64,000 nt of DNA from an uncultured delta proteobacterium (GTDB lineage Bacteria; Desulfobacterota; Syntrophobacteria; Syntrophobacterales; Syntrophobacteraceae): contig CAWEHK010000029.1 of NCBI GenBank assembly GCA_963808625.1, positions 32,001-96,000 on the forward strand. Direction: 5' to 3'. The translations under genes and the position numbers were made by a program. Position 1 is the first letter of the stretch, and every line of letters starts with the position of its first letter. The notes beneath the pieces were generated by a model. It saw nothing but the letters and a program-made list of their open reading frames with translations, searched no databases and was not told where the DNA came from. This document shows, piece after piece, positions 52,473 through 63,797 of the stretch.

Positions 52473-52763
52473 ATGAATTGCCAGATCGTGAACTTCAGAG
52501 ACAAACGAACGCGAGAGTTCGCCGAGGGAAACCGGGTCAGGGCTTTCGCCGGCTTTGAGCGCAAGGCGGAGATGAAGCTCGACCAGCTTGAGGCAGCAAC
52601 ATCGCTGCTCGATCTGGACTTACCCGGCAACCGTCTCGAAGCACTCAAGGGCGACCGCAAGGGCCAATACAGCATCCGCATCAATGATCAATGGCGAATT
52701 TGTTTCGAGTGGCCCAAGGGAACCCCGGGGCCGGTAAATGTTGAAATCATCGATTACCATTGA
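52473..52763 (+). CDS. higB: HigB/RelE-family toxin
   Basis: PGNRLEALKGDRKGQYSIRINDQWRICFEW...VEIIDYH. Confidence 0.92.
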   Translation: MNCQIVNFRDKRTREFAEGNRVRAFAGFERKAEMKLDQLEAATSLLDLDLPGNRLEALKGDRKGQYSIRINDQWRICFEWPKGTPGPVNVEIIDYH

Positions 52764-53223: not shown

Positions 53224-55170
53224 ATGTTCCTGGAAACCATAAAGATTGATGGATACAAAAACTTCGGTGAACCTTTTGATGTGCAGTTCGCCAAGGGGCT
53301 GAACGTTCTTGTTGGAGAGAACGGGGCGGGCAAGAGCGCCATCATTGACGCTCTTCGGCTCATTCTGATGGAGGATGAGTATGGGAGGACAGGTATCAGG
53401 GATACGGATTTCCACCGTCCGTTCACCGCGGCTGCGCTGCCTGCCGAGAGCTTTCGGATTATTGCGGAGTTCACTGGTCTCTCGCCCATGGAACAGGTGG
53501 CCTTCCTACCGTGGACCAATGTCGAGGGCAATGCGAAGCTCACGCTGCTTGTAATTGGCGAAGAGACGAGGTATGGCAGATACAGGAGGGCCTTATGGGG
53601 AGGTGAATCGCGGGCGTCCATGTTTGAGTCTGAACTGTTCGACAAGGTCAACTGCATTTATTTGCCCCCGTTGCGTGACGCTGAAAACAGACTTCGCGAA
53701 GGTAGAGGCTCCCATTTGGCGAGACTCCTAAGGAACCTGAACAAGAAACAGTTAGGTGAAGCTCGTCAAAACAGGACCAAACATCCTCTGGAGGTCGTTG
53801 TTCAAGGATTTAACGAGAATTTGGCCACTGACGAGACACAAACGATCTCGGCTGCAAACAAACTGATCGGTGGGCAATTGAAGGAGGTCTTGGGAGATGT
53901 ATTCGGGCAGGACACATGGATGCAATTCTCAGAGGTCAACTTCAATCGTATCGTCGAAGGGCTAAGATTGCTGTTCTTCCCGCAAGTCGATGCAGGTGGG
54001 AAACGGGATCTCTTCAGAAGCCTACAGGAGAACAGCCTTGGCTACAACAACCTGCTATATGTCGCCACGATTTTGGCAGAACTGACCATTTCGGGCGAGG
54101 ACTTCCTGAGAGTTCTTTTGATAGAGGAACCGGAAGCGCACCTCCATCCCCAATTGCAGATCCGGCTCTTGAAGTATCTTGAGGTGCAGGCACGCAAGGC
54201 TGGCATGCAGGTGATTGTAACAACGCATTCCCCAGTTCTGGCTTCCTCTGCCACACTCGACACGATTATCCATCTTTCAAATAACCGTGCTGGGAAGACG
54301 TTGGCGGTACCTTTGAGGCATTGCGGTCTCTCCGCCGATAGCAAGGCATTCGTCTCACGGTGGTTGGATATAACCAAATCAACGCTGCTCTTCGCGAAAG
54401 GGGTGATTCTGGTTGAGGGCATCGCTGAATCACTCTTGCTCCCTGAGCTCGCCAAGATAGTACTCAATGAAAATAGAACAAAGAGGACGAATCAGGACAA
54501 GAAGCCTCAACTTAACAATGACACAGGTAAAGCAATAGAAGGGGCCAATAAGGATGAACAATTCGACACAGGGTCCCCTGATTCACTTGAAAATCGTGGA
54601 GTCTCGGTCATCAATATGAACGGGATTTATTTCAAACATTTTCAGCAATTGTTCTGTAATTTGGACGGAGGTGGCTACCTCTCGATTCCGGTCCGGTGTG
54701 CGGGAATCACTGATCAAGATCCACCGAAGGAGGTCAACGGGGTTCCATTCAAGCCGACACCATCGCAAAAGGAACCGGGACTGAATCACGCGCTGAAATT
54801 GATCAACGTCGTGAATGGATCTGAGCACGCGAGATTATATTCGAATGATTTGAAGACGTTTGAATACGACCTGGCGATGGAAGGGGGAAACCTGAACGTA
54901 ATGCTTGCGGCAGTAAAAGAGTTGATCCAGACGGATGGTGCCATCAAACGTCAGCTCGAAAAATACATCGAGACGGGTTGGGCTGCCGAAAAGGACGAAG
55001 CCAAGCGAGCCGAGGCGGCCTCCTATCTTTTAGAAAAGATCGAGAAGGACAAGGGGGAGTTCGCCCAGGCCTTGGCGACTATGCTGGCGGGCGACAAAAC
55101 CTCAAGCTTTGCAGTACCCGAATACATTCAAAAGGCTGTTGTCTGGGCGTGCGGAGAGGCGGATGCCTGA
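53224..55170 (+). CDS. OLD-family ATP-dependent nuclease (ABC ATPase + TOPRIM), GajA-like
   Basis: GENGAGKS, LGYNNL, LLIEEPEAHLHPQ, TTHSP; TOPRIM ILVEGIAE and TDQD; TFEYDL. Confidence 0.88.
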   Translation: MFLETIKIDGYKNFGEPFDVQFAKGLNVLVGENGAGKSAIIDALRLILMEDEYGRTGIRDTDFHRPFTAAALPAESFRIIAEFTGLSPMEQVAFLPWTNVEGNAKLTLLVIGEETRYGRYRRALWGGESRASMFESELFDKVNCIYLPPLRDAENRLREGRGSHLARLLRNLNKKQLGEARQNRTKHPLEVVVQGFNENLATDETQTISAANKLIGGQLKEVLGDVFGQDTWMQFSEVNFNRIVEGLRLLFFPQVDAGGKRDLFRSLQENSLGYNNLLYVATILAELTISGEDFLRVLLIEEPEAHLHPQLQIRLLKYLEVQARKAGMQVIVTTHSPVLASSATLDTIIHLSNNRAGKTLAVPLRHCGLSADSKAFVSRWLDITKSTLLFAKGVILVEGIAESLLLPELAKIVLNENRTKRTNQDKKPQLNNDTGKAIEGANKDEQFDTGSPDSLENRGVSVINMNGIYFKHFQQLFCNLDGGGYLSIPVRCAGITDQDPPKEVNGVPFKPTPSQKEPGLNHALKLINVVNGSEHARLYSNDLKTFEYDLAMEGGNLNVMLAAVKELIQTDGAIKRQLEKYIETGWAAEKDEAKRAEAASYLLEKIEKDKGEFAQALATMLAGDKTSSFAVPEYIQKAVVWACGEADA

Positions 55171-57213
55171 TCACTCGGAGGTATTCGAAAAAGTGGCTTC
55201 GATCGTATGCGGCAAACCTGCAGGCATCTCGCATACCGAATGCTTGAAGTCGGTTGGTTCCCACAATCCTCTCTGCAGAGATTACGGTAAATGCCGCCTT
55301 TACGAGAAGACCTGCGAACAGTTTGAATATGTCCTGCATCCGAGAACTGAAAATTCATTCTTGCGGGCTTGCCCGGGCGGCGGCAAGACCGAGGTTATCG
55401 GCATGAAGGCGGCTTATGAGATCCGCCGGTGGGATGTGCTGCACGCGGGTATTGCTGTGCTCACCTTCACCAATAATGCCGCAGACGTAATACTGGAGCG
55501 GGTCACCCAGTTCGCTGGCAACGTGGGGCATCCACACTTCATCGGGACGTTTGATAGTTGGCTGCATGGGTACCTCGCTAATCCTTTTGCCTATATCCTC
55601 ACCGGCTATCTGGGCAAAAAAGGAGACCGAAGCATTAGGATTGTGGCTGCCTCGGATCGTGACGAGTGGCTCAATGCCTACAAATGTAAGACGCCCTTTG
55701 TCAAAAGGAGGAAGCCGAAGAGAGGCAAGAATAGCAAAGTGAACAGCAATGGGGAGTCGCCGCTCAGCATACCCATTTTCGCCAATCACTTCTGGTATGA
55801 CCACGAAACTGACAGGTTCCTCATTAGGAAGCCCTTTGTCGATTCGAGTGACTCCATCGATCACGAGACTTATTTCGCGACAAAAGAGTTCCAGGAGTAT
55901 CTGGCCGACAACGACAAGAAATGGTTGACCATAGACGTGTTAAAGAAGGACTTGGGTGATCGTAAGAAGCTGTTCTGGAAGGATGGTTTTGTGAACTACC
56001 AGGACGTAGAATGCCTGTCCGTGCTGTTGTTGAAGAAGGAGACGCTTCGGTCGCGGCTTTCCCGAAGGTTTCCGCTGGTAATTGTCGACGAATGCCAAGA
56101 CCTCTCTTGGGGGCAGCTGAGAATACTAGAGTTGCTGAAGGAGCAGGGGAGCCGAGTGCATTTGGTGGGAGACCTCAATCAGGCAATTTACGCTTTCAAA
56201 AAGGTTGATCCTTTAAACGTCGAGCGCTTTGTGGCCGAGCCTGGAGTGCACAAGTTGGCTCTACAGCGGAACTTCCGCAGTGTACAACCGATCGTGAACC
56301 TCTGCGGCAAGCTTCTCTACCAAGGTGACGTCACAGGTGAGCCGTGGGTCGGTGATGCACCCGCCTGTGTCTACTTCATCTATGACCCAAGCGACATGTC
56401 GGAGTTGCCGCGCCGATTCGAGACCTATCTGCGGACAAGGTCAATTGATGTGACCAAATCAGCGATTCTGGCGCGAGGGCATGCTACCGTAAACAAGCTC
56501 CGGCCAGCTGCGTCACGCGTAGCACCCAATGATTCCATCACCCTTGCGACAGCAGTGGACCTGTGGAGTTCTGCTGAAATCCAAGCCATAGATGAGTCGA
56601 TGAAATGTATTGGGAAGTTCATTGCCACGAAGTTCTTCCCCAAACAGTCCATTGATTCACGGCATCACTACCGACCCGAGATGGTAGGATCTGCCTTGCA
56701 GTGGCGTCTTTCTCTTGTGCGAGTTTTGGACGAATGTCTCCACAATGGAATTTTTCAGACCTCAGTCAGACTTGGAGCAATTGGGCGAAAATCGTTAGGT
56801 CGAGCTTGAAGCAGATCGTTGCAAGCGTTTTTCAGGGCGATTTGCCCGATGATCACGGACCATTCACGTTTTCCTCATTGCGGGGCAGCTCCGGAACTAC
56901 TGTTATGGAATCTCTCAACACTCCCAGGAAGATCACAAAGCCAGGTATCCGTGTTGCAACAATACATCAAGCAAAAGGCCAAACGTTTGAAGCCGTTATC
57001 ATTGCTGACGCACGACTTTAAAAATCGAGGTCCGGGCATCGATTTTCGAGCAGTTCGGACGCCGTCCCACTGGTTGGCAGATGCAAATTATATAGAGTGT
57101 CAGGCCCCAGGTCATTCCATGGCTCCCGATGCTGAGGTTTTCTGCCGCTCCGAGCATAATTCCCCTTTTCCCCCTGGTTGGGGGCCATTTAGATTATGCT
57201 GACTGCCTGTGTG

Positions 57214-58755
57214 CTATATCAGCCGGAGCTGATATGGGGCAGCAAGGCGTTCCTCGATCCATGCGCGATCCAGCCATGGGCTGGCCATGGTTTGGCGAAC
57301 AAAGGAGATTAGACCTCTAATCCCCGTCTCTTTAACGATTTTGGCAAGCCTCTCCGAGTACCGGGCCATGATGTTGAAAATGTGGCCCAGTTGCATCAGG
57401 TAATGGTATCCTCTCATGGCATTCCAGTTATATGCAAAGCAGTGTTCGTACTGATAACCATGATGTTTCTCTACCAGAAAACCTGTCTCTATGGTCCACC
57501 GAGAGCGGGCGCCCAAATTGCATCGCTCTTGGAGGTTGCTCCTGTTGAGAGGTTCGCTGGATATCCACAGATGCCGACCCTTCTTTTCAACAACCCGTGT
57601 GCCCCCTTTCTCGATCTCCTGCCAGGTCTCTACGCATTCGACCACATGAATGGTCTCGATCTTTTTCCCATTCGGTCCAAAGTCGTACTCGATATCATTC
57701 GCCCATCGAAAATGCTGGTTTCTGTTGCCCCAGGTACGGGTATATCGATGTTTGGGCTCAAGCTCGCTCAGGGCTTCAAATTCACCATGCACGCTCGGTA
57801 AACTCTTGTCCTGCAAAACGATCATGTATTGCCATTTGTGTTCTCGGCAAAACTCCATCACGGGCCCATTGGCGTAAAGACCATCCAAAAAAACCATGAT
57901 CCGCAGAGCAGGAAATGCCTCCTTGAGCCGTCGACCCAGCCGGTAGAATCCCTTTAGCTCACAGTCCTGTTTACTGTCACCGGTATCGCCTGCTGTGAAG
58001 CTCAGAAACTCGCTCATCAAAGGAATGCTCATTCCGTCTCTGAAGGCCAGACTGGCCTGCAAAACGTAAACATAATATTGAACATGTTGAGACTCGTCCT
58101 TCCCAACCGTACGCTGCATACACTCTTCATCCCACAGCCAATCGCGAGACAGCTTCTGCGTACCATCTATCGCTATCGGGTAACAATTCTCGATCAAATA
58201 CCGGCGAAACTTCTTCTGCCTGATCCATTCCCGGATCAGCTCGATCTGCGCGCCCTCGATCTCCCCTACATCAAGCTCCCACAAGAGACGTTTCAGCGTA
58301 TCATGATGGGGGACCTCCTCAAGTTCCGGAAAGATCAGTTTCAGGTTCTCCCAAAACATCGGGCGGGTCATTTCTCTGTTGGCCTCGCGAGACGAGCTCA
58401 TCTGCAATACAAACACCAATATCCCGTAGATCAACAGGACGGTAAGCTTATGCTTCGTCTTTTTGGGGTTTCTGGGCTCCGGAATCTTCGACAGTCGCCC
58501 CAGAAGTACTGGCAACTTGGCGCGAAATACCTTCAATTGCTCCCATACCGCCTCGTTACGCGCGCTATGTTCCTCCCCCACGTCCTGGTATGCACACTTG
58601 TGATTAGCGATCGTTGAGTGCGAGGAACCCTGCAATCCCTTCCCCTTCTGCTCCTCACGCAAGGCCTTCTGGGCTCGCTTCCTCTCTTTCCGGCGCGCTT
58701 TGATCTCTTCCCGATTCGGACGACGGCTGGGTTTGCTCATGGTTTGCCCTCCCAA
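57214..58755 (-). CDS. DDE transposase (ISAs1/ISNCY-like)
   Basis: IPEPRNPKK, PHHDTL, IAIDGTQ, KQDCE, LDGLYAN, ARSRWTIETGF. Confidence 0.85.
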   Translation of the reverse strand: MGGQTMSKPSRRPNREEIKARRKERKRAQKALREEQKGKGLQGSSHSTIANHKCAYQDVGEEHSARNEAVWEQLKVFRAKLPVLLGRLSKIPEPRNPKKTKHKLTVLLIYGILVFVLQMSSSREANREMTRPMFWENLKLIFPELEEVPHHDTLKRLLWELDVGEIEGAQIELIREWIRQKKFRRYLIENCYPIAIDGTQKLSRDWLWDEECMQRTVGKDESQHVQYYVYVLQASLAFRDGMSIPLMSEFLSFTAGDTGDSKQDCELKGFYRLGRRLKEAFPALRIMVFLDGLYANGPVMEFCREHKWQYMIVLQDKSLPSVHGEFEALSELEPKHRYTRTWGNRNQHFRWANDIEYDFGPNGKKIETIHVVECVETWQEIEKGGTRVVEKKGRHLWISSEPLNRSNLQERCNLGARSRWTIETGFLVEKHHGYQYEHCFAYNWNAMRGYHYLMQLGHIFNIMARYSERLAKIVKETGIRGLISFVRQTMASPWLDRAWIEERLAAPYQLRLI

Positions 58756-58762
58756 CCGTTAG

Positions 58763-59665
58763 CTATGAACATAGAACCGTGCGGAAATCGTCAACAAGTG
58801 GCTTAACAAAGATCTTCTTGGGACTCGTTGTGTAGCTCTTGCCCTTGCGGATAAGCCCTTCCCCGGTTGTCATCCCAACATATTGCCAGTTTGCCGCCCG
58901 GTAACATGTCCCAGCATAGTACTGAGGATCTACAAACGTCTCCACCAATACCGGGCGATAACTCCACCTCTCCTCCCAATCCGCCCTTATCCGCCTTATG
59001 GCCTGACCCAATACGTGACTTGCCAAATATTTAACCTTCACCCATGGAAAAATCACAAATCGCGTATTGTTCACTACCCAGCCAAGATTCCTTAGTCGCG
59101 TGCTTGCGCTCCAACCGATCCAACGATCCCGCTCTCCTAATGACTTCGCGGCTCCAGCAAACAACAGACAGCCCAACCTACCACGCTCGCTCTCTACAAA
59201 ATACCGGGCAAAACAACCAAATGGCCGCTTGTAACCAAGGTAGTGGTACCGGTTCACATATTCATTCCAAAGCTCCGTCTCCTGCCTTTCTCTTACCACC
59301 TCCAGGCGAACACGTCCCACCTCTCTGATACCACCTTCTATCGCTGGCTGGAGCCCTGTCCTCTCCGTCAAACACGGCTTCCTCGATCCCTTCCGTGAAC
59401 TTACCTGCTTTGAAGGCACCTTCAAAAAACCCTGCGATTCCAGTCTTTCCAAAAGCTTCAAGCAGGCATTGGCCTTGGGACTCCCGGAGGCACTATGCCA
59501 TCCTAAATGCTCACATATCGTCACTAACAGTTCTTCACGACTCAACCTCCAAAACGTCGCAACCGTCTCACTGATTTCCTCTATCTCTCTAATGCTGATT
59601 TCCCGTCCGCACTGGATCAATTGACTCCCTTGCCGCTGATGCATAGCGCTATTCCTCCTGTTCAA
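58763..59665 (-). CDS. DUF4338 (DruA-like domain) protein
   Basis: LWNEYVNRYHYLGY, RDRWIGW, VVNNTRFVIFPWV...LASHVL, PVLVETFVD, GTCYRAANW. Confidence 0.88.
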   Translation of the reverse strand: MNRRNSAMHQRQGSQLIQCGREISIREIEEISETVATFWRLSREELLVTICEHLGWHSASGSPKANACLKLLERLESQGFLKVPSKQVSSRKGSRKPCLTERTGLQPAIEGGIREVGRVRLEVVRERQETELWNEYVNRYHYLGYKRPFGCFARYFVESERGRLGCLLFAGAAKSLGERDRWIGWSASTRLRNLGWVVNNTRFVIFPWVKVKYLASHVLGQAIRRIRADWEERWSYRPVLVETFVDPQYYAGTCYRAANWQYVGMTTGEGLIRKGKSYTTSPKKIFVKPLVDDFRTVLCS

Positions 59666-60284
59666 CCCGGAATCGTTCCACGCTATACTATCAAAGGGCG
59701 CTTCTCGTGTCTACTCCTTTGTTGCGACAAATTATTTCTCTTCATCCCTCCAAAACCATATCTCACCGCAATGCGCTGACTTGTGCGTCAGCACTGAGCC
59801 GTTATGCTCGTGTCCTCACCTACTAAACAGGGAGACGGAGCTCACTGGCGTCACTGGATTGATAAAACGAGCGGTGACGGGGAGCATACCCGATTCGCAT
59901 ATGTAGCGAGTTCCCGGCCGCGAGGACTACTGGCTTGGGCAATACCGAAAGGCGATGAAGGGGCCATCGCAGTCATAGAACATCTAGGCTTTGTTCCCGG
60001 TCCCAAGGTGAACCATGTAGACGTTTTTCAGCAGGCGACATAAGGATGCCATCCGAGATAAGAAGTTCCCTTTGACATTTTTCAAGGACTGCTGAATTTC
60101 GGATGAACCTTCAAAACATATATGATCCCAGGATTGCTGAAATAGTCAGCCGAGAAAGGGACTCCCTCGATGTTCAGGTGAATGACCCTTGATGGGCCGA
60201 AGCATTACGATCTGGACACATGAGCCAGCAACTCGGATTTTGATTGATGTTATTGGGTTTTGCCTCTGTCGGGATAGAGAAGCC

Positions 60285-63200
60285 ATGAGCAAATTCTCGG
60301 AGGATTTCGCATCCGAAAAACTGTTAACCATTCTTAGCGCCTCTCCTCTCCCTCTTTCCACTAGAGATCTGGGCCTGCGGCTGAGGCTGCATCACCTGCG
60401 GATGGCCGATTATGAGGTCGGTTGTCTTCTCCGCAACCTGCTTAATGAAAGCAAAGTCAACTTCAGAATGGGACGCTGGACTGCGTCCCATTCTTCCGTA
60501 ACAGCCCCACCTCCCTCATCTACGGATCTTCCGCCCTTAAGTGGAGAGACACTCTCAATCCTCGGTTTCAAGCCACATGGAGTCACAGCTGAGCTCCCTC
60601 CTGCCGATACAGTGGGGATTGAAACTGAGATCAATGAAGCTGACACTGATATTTATTCCGGCCGATGGGGAACATTCCGTAGACTGGTTGCATACTATCG
60701 TCAATGTATTCGTCAGGAGGAAGGCGCGGATGCTTCGGCTTTTCAGAATGAGTTGGGCAGGAGTTTCCTCTATCTTCGTCGGATCGGATGGTGGCATCCC
60801 AGGCCAGGCGTTCGCTGGCAGGCCAATATCCCTCTCGGGCCACATCTGTCGCCGCTGCTCAACGCCCTGCCTGGTAAGGGCGAGGATCAAGCCTTGGTAA
60901 TCGGCTATCCGGTGCAGGCCTACTTCAAGGAAAAGGTTGGGGAGCCAAACGTCGCCGTCATTCGGCCAATTTTCTTTTTTACCGTAGAGACCGCAATCGC
61001 CCTAAACGGATTGGTCGTCAGTTGCGAGGACGCTCGACCTGAAATTAATTTAGGATGGCTTGAGTTTGCCTTTTCCCGCAACGTTGATCGCCAGCGGAGC
61101 TTCCTTTCCGCCTGCGGTTTTCTCAATCGCGAGAGACCAATTGATGAACCCCCTGGTCTGGAGCGGAGTGAACGGATTCCCGGCTTGGATAGCCTTGTTG
61201 CCGCCCTTTCTGCGTTCATGCCGGACAAGGTCCGGGAGCCCCTGCATATGGAGAGTGTGCCGGATGATCCGCTTCGGGAGCCTTTTACGACCGGTATCTA
61301 TAACCGCGCCGTCATTATGTTGGCGAAACGAACTAAGTACACGGCCACCCTGCTCAAGGAACTTGCGGCCATTGAGCGCGAACCAGATGAGAAGTTGGAT
61401 CGCACGGCACTTCGCTACATTTTTGCCACCGACCGGGAACAACCGACTCCGGGAGAACTCCTGCACGAGGCAATCGTAGTCGACACCGCCCCACTTAATG
61501 CAGAGCAGCGGTTGGCGACAGCTTCTCTCCTCATCAGGGACATAACAGTGGTCACAGGCCCTCCGGGTACCGGCAAGAGCCAAGTGGTCAGTAGCACCAT
61601 AGCCAACGCTCGACTGCGCGACCAGACGGTGCTTTTCGCAAGTCGCAACCATAAGGCAATCGACGCCGTGTTTGATCGGCTTTCCGATTCCGAGGGACGG
61701 CCGCTCATAGTGCGCACCAACTCTAAAGACGATCCTAGCCTCAATTACACCTTTTCTCACGCCATCCGGGACATGCTTGCCGCACCACCCCACCCGGAGT
61801 CGAGTGTTCGTCTGAAACGTGCAAATGAAGAACTAACTGCGCTACTCGACGAACGGGGTAGCAAGGCAGGCTTTGCCCGCCGCGTGGCTGAAGCCGGAAC
61901 GGCCCTGGGAGAACTCGAGGAGCGCCGAAGCTATTTGGCGCGAGATTTCCCTGAGGAGATGTCGCGCTTTCTTGATGCAAAACCTGAGCGCTTCCCTGGG
62001 AAGGCTCTTAACAGGGTGGCGCAGACCATCCACACACTGCATCTCCAGAGCCCCGATAACGCCCTCATGCGAAGGTTTCGAACTGTGTTTTGGGCCTGGA
62101 CGATCTTCCCTTGGTACAGGCTGGCCCAGCGTGGTTTGCGCCACATCCCGAGGTGTCCGGAACTACCTGCTCTCCCGGGGGCTCGGCGTTAAAGGTTTTG
62201 CTTCCAGTGTTGTCCCTATTGGAACGGGCAATGGAATATGCCCGGCTAAGTAGCGAGTGCCGACCTTATGAGGCTAGACTTGCTGAGCTCCCGCAGTTGG
62301 AAGATACAACCATAGCTGTCTCTGACCTCACCAATCGCATTCGCGAGGTAGCGCTCCGCGCGGTGCCTCTCGACCTGGACAGCCGCTGCAATCTTGAAGA
62401 GGAGATTAACCGTGAAGAACTGGACGGTCTGCGCGCTGCACTCAATGCGATGCGTACCGGACTTGATGAAGGAATCATTCGACACGAGACTGTTCGGGTT
62501 CTTGAAGAACGGGCACCCCATATCCTCAAGGCATTTCCCTGCTGGGCTGTAACCAATCTTTCAGCCGGTTCTCGTATCCCCTTGGTAGCGGGATTATATG
62601 ACCTCGCCATTGTTGACGAAGCAAGCCAATCCGATATTCCTTCCGCCATCCCTATCCTATATCGCGCCCGCAGGGCAGCGGTTGTCGGTGATCCCTTTCA
62701 ACTCACCCACACCTCCCGTCTTTCCACAGCTAGAGACACGATGCTGCGAAGGGAAGCGGGACTCAAGCGGGTGGAGGATGTTCGCTTCGCCTACACTGAA
62801 AGCTCCCTTTACAATCTGTTCGCGGGCACAAATGGCGTGGAACCAGTATTTCTAAGCGAAACCTACCGCAGCACCGAGGAAATCGCCAATTACTCCAGTC
62901 GCGCCTTTTACAGCGGGAGGCTCAGGGTAGCCACAGACGAACGTAAACTCACAACTCCGCGCGGCATGTCCACTGGAATCCACTGGACGGTAGTGACCGG
63001 AGCGATCCAGAGCGGAGGCGGCAGCGGCTGCACCTGTCGGGAGGAGGTGGACGCGGTCGTAGATATCATGCGCACCTTACTCCTGGAAAATAACTTCCTG
63101 GGAACAGCGGGCGTAGTCACTCCCTTCCGCCAGCAGGCGAACCGTCATAAGGGATGCTCTCTTTGAGAGCGACGCCCGTCTTTATGAAGCTCTCCTCCGA

Positions 63201-63797
63201 TCCAGAGTCCATGTGGACACTGCCCACGGGTTTCAGGGCGATGAGCGGGATATCATCATTTTCAGCCTCTGTGCTGGCCCGGAGATGCCGGTAGGTTCCC
63301 GATCTTTTCTGCGTGAGACCGGTAATCTTTTTAATGTGGCCGTGAGTCGCGCCAGGGCTGTTCTTCATGTAGTGGGCAACCGAGAATGGGCCAAAACATG
63401 CGGCATTCGACACATTCAAGATTTGGCAGTGCCTGGAGAGCGGCCATCGGGGACAGCGCAACGGGGACCGTGGCACCCCCATGAATCCCCCTGGGAGGAG
63501 AAACTCTACCGCGCGCTGGTGGAGGCCGGCCTCGACCCGCGACCACAATTTCCGGTTAGCGGTAGGCGATTGGATCTTGCTCTTGTCGGGCATGGGGATA
63601 GACAGTTGAAGATCGATATCGAGGTGGACGGAGACTGCCACCGTAACCCCGACGGCACACGAAAGATGGACGATCTTTGGCGCGATATCCAACTTCAGGG
63701 CATGGGCTGGAAAGTCATGCGGTTCTGGACTTACATGCTCCGTGAAGACATGGGGGCTTGTGTGGAGAAAATCCTTAAGGCATGGAGCGAACAATGA
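60285..63797 (+). CDS. Large wHTH-like + Upf1/DNA2-like SF1 helicase + DUF559 endonuclease (frameshifts near 62180 and 63150)
   Basis: GPPGTGKSQ, ASRNHKAID, IVDEASQ, VGDPFQL, VVTPFRQQ, TAHGFQGDERD, FNVAVSRAR; C-terminal ESPWE...RLDLAL...IEVDG...GWKVMRFW. Confidence 0.85.

Follow-up and report, generated by a model that had tools for sequence, protein, structure and literature searches.

A two-gene insertion sequence from an uncultured member of the Syntrophobacteraceae carries a predicted Mom-type GNAT enzyme beside a transposase of an apparently unclassified lineage

The 64,000 nt stretch of DNA analyzed here (the window) comes from an uncultured delta proteobacterium of the family Syntrophobacteraceae (assembly GCA_963808625.1, contig CAWEHK010000029.1, positions 32,001 to 96,000) and contains, at 57000-59796, an insertion sequence (IS) of 2,797 bp and 51.6% guanine plus cytosine with two genes, one for a DDE transposase and one, its passenger, for a protein of the DUF4338 family. 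For the passenger the prediction is a catalytically active GNAT acyltransferase of the Mom type, and the reading we favor, with a probability of roughly 0.45, is that it modifies DNA, mainly in cis, and is kept for the benefit of the element. ISs are regarded as minimal elements, and the accessory genes we know of encode ATPases, nucleases and frameshift partners, none of them DNA-modifying enzymes. An IS with a passenger gene is of a known kind; it is the enzyme that is unusual, and it can be tested.

The original prediction for this DNA gave the biochemical function of DUF4338 as unknown and proposed structure prediction as a check. In the structural model (mean predicted local distance difference test score, pLDDT, 81), a small N-terminal domain made of three helices precedes a GNAT domain. 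Mom of phage Mu is the closest structural match to the latter, so that 'unknown' is too weak a description. Foldseek placed Mom (8bv8) at the top of at least 500 matches (E 1.9e-6), and VIA-align also put it first (Z 14.5, root-mean-square deviation 4.2 over 162 residues), with the next GNAT at 12.3. Apart from PF14236 (E 2.5e-36), the sole Pfam match was to Mom PF25680 (E 5e-4). Sections of PMC13219725 describe Mom as transferring glycine from Gly-tRNA(Gly) to the N6 of adenine in DNA, giving protection from nucleases, and parts of that paper and of PMC7261163 give R111, S124 and R151 as essential, H58, Y59, D149 and Y159 as important, and the 175-209 insertion as required. In the DUF4338 protein, H134, Y135, S209, D239 and Y248 align with Mom H58, Y59, S124, D149 and Y159, and R195 fits Mom R111 by strand position and spacing. 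All of 119 close homologues have H134, R195, S209, D239 and Y248, and all 69 DUF4338 proteins of loci picked by their transposase alone have H134, R195, S209 and Y248, while at 29 DUF4338 loci of other elements the His and Arg are kept in 29, the Ser and the Tyr of position 248 in 28, and the Asp in 21. Mom and DUF4338 are also alike in being encoded by transposing elements, a phage in the one case and ISs in the other.

A number of observations weigh against a Mom-type assignment. The PF25680 score of 20.2 bits is below the curated cut-off of 27.1, hhalign of DUF4338 against Mom gives a probability of 4.7% (the two share 14-16% identity), and MAFFT leaves R195 unaligned to R111. In the wider set of 69 proteins, Y135 occurs in just 28 and D239 in 54, with Glu in 14. 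The essential R151 of Mom is not conserved, the position being Q241 here and variable elsewhere, and a short hairpin takes the place of the helical insertion (175-209), likewise essential, whereas DUF4338 adds the N-terminal three-helix domain and an RDxWIGW insert. An Arg at 242 or 266 was considered as a stand-in for R151 and rejected, 13 of the 69 having neither and 10 having both. Mom is ahead of generic GNATs for proteins and polyamines by only about 2 Z units, and a passage of PMC13219725 states that the substrate is not predictable from structure. Finally, nine of the 29 best other DUF4338 loci in a sample of 401 genomes of the phylum have no transposase within about 1.5 kb, two of them lying near contig ends.

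A single left-end promoter probably drives both genes. If the passenger acts on DNA as we favor, the enzyme would work mostly in cis, near its own transposase, as suggested by the overlap of the DUF4338 stop with the transposase start in several relatives and by in-frame fusion in IS4/Tn5 elements. The N-terminal helical domain, which in the Atlas matches unnamed 'mobile element' clusters, might be the DNA-binding part, a guess prompted by its three helices. An acyl or aminoacyl group, from a charged tRNA (as in Mom) or from acyl-CoA, would be transferred to adenine, and the modified bases in or near the element would protect the element, or the DNA that carries it, against restriction nucleases or, alternatively, tune recognition of the ends. 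The enzyme would be accessory and losable, and not core to the transposition reaction. DNA seems a more plausible substrate than any one protein surface, since the partner is common to unrelated transposases. A wider proposal, offered more tentatively, is that a DNA-hypermodifying enzyme of their own, Mom-type and possibly tRNA-dependent, is carried by ISs from five or more unrelated transposase families and marks element DNA in cis (for anti-restriction or epigenetic control), and that most environmental proteins called DruA or DUF4338 are this IS enzyme and not parts of Druantia. Should the passenger modify DNA, it would constitute a hypermodification system borne by an IS, a new case outside phage Mu in which to test tRNA-dependent GNAT chemistry, and a possible route for small elements past restriction barriers. 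The lineage is convenient for such tests, with a gene that is separate from the transposase, both genes intact, and natural DUF-less controls.

Other ISs, too, pair DUF4338 with a transposase. Of the 401 genomes, 57 contain homologues, and the remaining 20 of the 29 loci are beside or fused to a transposase or IS66 tnpB gene (IS66 in 11, IS4/Tn5 in five, including four fusions, ISKra4 in two and the present lineage in two). This genome has six DUF4338 genes: two in the IS described here, two upstream of IS1634 transposases, one joined in a fusion with an IS4 transposase, and one alone. Four other transposase families (IS66, IS4/Tn5, ISKra4 and IS1634) are thereby accompanied by DUF4338 homologues. 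At G000:C4:60825-62225 a DUF4338 protein of 466 aa is encoded, extended by an additional N-terminal region and with no transposase seen adjoining. Sequences in PDB gave no match to DUF4338 better than E 0.49, a plasmid collection yielded two records for DUF4338, and among 50,697 records of a phage collection there was no match at E≤0.01. Full-text searches of the literature gave no link of DUF4338 or Mom-like genes to ISs, and Iyer et al. 2009/2013, the Siguier IS review and supplements could mention one; part of PMC7824862 reports Mom domains in phage and bacterial genomes and cites both papers by Iyer et al. In source records, genes like this passenger go under the name 'Druantia anti-phage system protein DruA', which inflates counts of defense systems. 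The present case contributes a further, unclassified lineage of transposases, together with natural derivatives that lack DUF4338, one of which has a target duplication, and a contrast in active site with DruA.

The rival that survives best, itself rather doubtful, is that the passenger, still an active GNAT, acylates not DNA but another target (the transposase, RNA, or a host protein, for example a protease or repair factor) and in this way regulates transposition. Protein, polyamine and aminoglycoside acetyltransferases come close behind Mom (Z 11-12), the DNA-contacting insertion and R151 of Mom are absent, and the fusions and the stop/start overlap would hold the enzyme near the transposase. 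DUF4338 has already been called a GNAT, as a fusion in DndF, by authors of the Aravind laboratory, who suggest protein targets for these fusions in part of PMC10853773. Modification of DNA is instead indicated by the His-Tyr/Arg/Ser/Asp/Tyr pattern, which is that of Mom, and no obvious common protein target exists across five unrelated transposase families.

The original prediction also allowed that DUF4338, as the domain of DruA, is carried as defense cargo. That the passenger defends the host against phages (by marking host DNA or by toxic acylation) while the IS hitch-hikes is improbable, and Druantia cargo specifically is unlikely. DruA of Druantia type I (PADLOC PDLC00001/00002) belongs to the same Pfam family, PF14236, and has the RDxWIGW region in common with the passenger. 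At least one relative could move without this gene, and the present copy lies inside a defense island. However, the gene set of Druantia type I is described in a portion of PMC7251935 as druA with druB, C, D and E; the IS has no room for druB-E and none is found within it, the neighboring ORFs (open reading frames) encoding GajA, GajB and an SF1 helicase, and no Dru model of PADLOC matched the DUF4338 protein at E≤0.001. Identity to DruA is about 30% across only some 80 aa, and 5/5 PADLOC-type DruA proteins (found by the PADLOC model and not by Druantia context, with a sixth, partial match left out) show Trp, Lys and Ser in place of H134, S209 and D239. By this contrast, IS-borne DUF4338 keeps a Mom-type active site that DruA proper lacks. 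The second copy of the IS disrupts a housekeeping gene for a helicase, each of the two insertions has broken a gene of the host, and repeated in-frame fusion to transposases would be unusual for cargo that benefits the host.

Linkage of the two genes was measured in 79 metagenome loci picked by transposase alone, a sample biased toward closer relatives because it was taken from the best 80 of 452 confirmed loci (45-69% identity). The prediction that DUF4338 moves with the element was borne out: in 59 of the 61 loci with at least 1 kb upstream, the gene lies directly upstream of the transposase, uninterrupted in 58, and a general lack of DUF4338 among close transposase homologues, which would have counted against the pairing, was not seen. 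Across all 79, the gene or its tail is present in 69, five have complete left ends without DUF4338, in which 115-162 bp separate the terminal repeat from the start of the transposase, one has neither in 321 bp, one is cut by an integrase gene and three are contigs that start at the transposase; truncated controls show that a DUF4338 tail would have been picked up. On genome contigs the gene is found in 12 of 13 loci, the thirteenth having just 54 bp upstream. DUF-less forms occur at three or more places on the transposase tree and four of the five have an open transposase frame, among them L133, an element of 1,857 bp with a 508-aa frame and a perfect 9 bp duplication. With five relatives lacking the gene, one of them with this duplication, DUF4338 is probably not required in cis. 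A decayed and internally deleted member of the lineage (L033:1175-2436, 1,262 bp) has both terminal repeats and likewise no DUF4338.

These elements argue against an obligate cofactor, a strict version of the transposition/targeting cofactor in the original prediction, that would bind the transposase or the ends in the manner of IS21 IstB or IS66 TnpB; this seems quite unlikely, even allowing for complementation of DUF-less elements in trans. It is favored by the linkage in 59/61 relatives, by a promoter probably common to both genes, and by trees in broad though incomplete agreement (of 41 well-supported splits in the transposase tree, 27 are also found in that of DUF4338; rho 0.74 between patristic distances of 68 loci, which are not independent). 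Besides the five DUF-less elements, it is opposed by the service of the same module to unrelated transposase chemistries and by DUF6788, which fills the slot of DUF4338 in two more distant relatives. These two, with transposases of 29-33% identity, have a small DUF6788 gene (PF20586) at L019:2662-3030 and L021:695-1066, and judged from the sequence DUF6788 is a second type of accessory gene in the wider transposase family.

That the gene is a neutral passenger, acquired once and simply carried, is very improbable and largely refuted: it can be lost, but it is under purifying selection, with a ratio of nonsynonymous to synonymous substitution rates of 0.148 against relative locus L001, equal at 0.15 to that of the transposase (0.152; most other pairs were saturated, and the rows for L005 DUF and L015 transposase were dropped), its active-site residues are invariant, 58 of 59 upstream copies are uninterrupted, and five transposase families have recruited it.

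The element is intact and recently transposed, and has the features of a classical DDE IS: terminal inverted repeats (TIRs), a target duplication, an intact DDE transposase and more than one insertion site. The TIR downstream of the transposase (57000-57015), which is kept in 39 two-ended relatives, is identical at 14 of 16 positions to that upstream of the DUF4338 gene (59781-59796), and the target-site duplication is the 9 bp sequence AGCCGTTAT, found on the forward strand at 56991-56999 and 59797-59805. Only two ORFs lie between the TIRs and both are uninterrupted, in agreement with the delimited two-gene IS originally described. A scan of the whole 4.8-Mb assembly for the same geometry (9 bp direct repeats 1-4 kb apart, enclosing arms with at least a 14/16 match) found seven places, two being the copies of this element and four another IS, so the boundary pattern is not due to chance. 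The other IS, of about 1,326 bp, has ends starting CAGTG and 9 bp duplications, and is found at G000:C7:24976-26303, C43:74910-76235, C43:95844-97168 and C54:66384-67709.

Counting of copies, a check suggested with the original prediction, gave two in the genome at different target sites. The second (G000:C29:121479-124275), 30 kb away on the same contig, is of equal length and 98.8% identity (34 substitutions), with its own 9 bp duplication and both frames open. Ten of the 34 differences cluster within 54 bp of the transposase gene (window 57718-57771), which suggests recombination with a third variant. The boundaries were also seen in contigs of relatives from four unrelated runs among the 14 metagenome runs listed, compared over 56000-60800: cover is confined to about 57000-59799, the pieces beginning at 57000 and stopping at 59797-59799, with none in the 1 kb to the left of the element nor in 59864-60507, and the sole other cover is a separate patch (60508-60800) from one run. 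Among the 39 two-ended metagenome relatives, two have exact 9 bp duplications, one an 8/9 match and seven are too near a contig edge, while no direct-repeat length of 4-12 other than 9 was found at their ends. In the remaining relatives, flanks from different copies were probably merged in assembly, and they therefore neither support nor refute a 9 bp duplication. No consensus pattern appeared among the targets, with only 4-5 exact 9-mers to compare.

The suggestion that the element might represent an unclassified IS group is supported by the transposase, which no curated IS-family model of NCBIfam fits at its cut-off. It matches PF13808, which we take to be an ISAs1-associated domain, and weakly DDE_Tnp_1; no IS4 model of NCBIfam matched at E≤0.01 and no ISAs1 model matched, and the IS1380 model NF033539 gave 20.3 bits (E 1.7e-4) against a cut-off of 180. 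The motif Y-x2-R-x3-E-x6-K (YREK) is that of the IS4 family, and R-x3-E-x6-K is present around the triad Glu (R414, E418, K425) with Ala in place of Tyr; D192, D286, E418, R414 and K425 are invariant in an alignment of 46 transposases. The structural model (pLDDT 84) has Tn5 structures as its top five Foldseek matches (E 7e-8 to 1e-6). Tn5/IS50 (4dm0, 1mm8, 1mus) resembles it in fold and in a DDE triad with R-x3-E-x6-K, and IS50 has a 9 bp target duplication, but identity is 10-12%, the template modeling score is about 0.5, and the present element has the N-terminal PF13808 domain and a second gene. A cut-and-paste, Tn5-like transposition is likely, going by the predicted fold. At 2.8 kb and with two genes, the element differs from ISAs1, IS1380 and ISNCY; its transposase has 22% identity to a RefSeq 'ISNCY' transposase (WP_234711115.1), and in the plasmid collection nine distant records matched, the nearest named being cyanobacterial 'ISNCY' or unnamed transposases (22-26% identity). 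CAG ends and a 9 bp duplication presumably fit the ISMae2 group, whose members have a single ORF. The transposase is best called an unclassified, IS4-superfamily-like lineage as judged by NCBIfam models, with the ISMae2 group compared by ends, duplication and number of ORFs. Scoring of 8,000 candidates gave at least 2,860 homologues of this transposase (2,497 representatives at 50% clustering), and the lineage is present in 16 of the 401 genomes.

Both genes are on the reverse strand. The original prediction had the DUF4338 ORF end 7 bp before a transposase ORF of 513 aa; the ORFs are adjacent and intact as stated, but the 513-aa version depends on a TTG start, and ATG 58740, preceded by GGGAGG (58748-58753, the likely ribosome-binding site), gives a protein of 508 aa, as long as most of its close homologues, so that the gap is 22 bp and not 7. 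The transposase gene thus spans 57214-58740, with an inferred triad of D192, D286 and E418 and a predicted Tn5-like fold. The DUF4338 (PF14236) protein most likely starts at ATG 59644, giving 293 aa (58763-59644), with the three-helix domain at about 9-70 and the Mom-like GNAT domain, which holds the residues H134, Y135, R195, S209, D239 and Y248 noted above, at about 109-292. Upstream of it, on the same strand, are a likely ribosome-binding site, AGGAGG (59654-59659), and a predicted sigma70-like promoter with a TG extension (TAGACA-17-TAGTAT, 59685-59713), whose -35 hexamer recurs in 33 of 40 left ends that carry DUF4338. A subterminal TCGCA box (59723-59727, reverse strand), 68-70 nt from the left end, is kept in 38/40 DUF-bearing and 5/5 DUF-less left ends (43/45) and is likely to be an inner transposase-binding site. 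A conserved RNA was considered for the right end of about 215 bp and rejected, an alignment of 43 ends being conserved in the TIR alone.

As originally proposed, the IS landed inside a defense gene. The pieces flanking it match consecutive parts of one PADLOC GajB profile (444-528 and 527-590), identifying the interrupted gene as gajB, with a 5' part at 55109-56999 and a 3' remainder past the insertion at 59806-60043 (profile 527-590, E 1.2e-20), both on the forward strand. Upstream and also on the forward strand is gajA (53224-55170; PADLOC GajA E 1.4e-235), encoding the Gabija OLD-type nuclease/ATPase. The frame of gajB changes at a short T run near 56751 (56736-56775), upstream of and independent of the insertion, and this frameshift is either decay or a sequencing error. 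The target of the second copy is an MrfA/Hrq1-type DEAH helicase gene (G000:C29:118515-121494, L166), now in two pieces that match TIGR03817 over 2-432 and 429-740; both copies are therefore in helicase genes, which may be chance, there being two cases only. Downstream of gajB, three ORFs at 60189-63797 with weak MkoA/Hhe-like PADLOC matches make up a gene for an SF1 helicase with a DUF559/REase-type nuclease, apparently split by frameshifts, and a HigB-like ORF is located at 52473-52763. Together with Gabija, the split helicase/nuclease gene and the HigB-like ORF form a decaying defense island.

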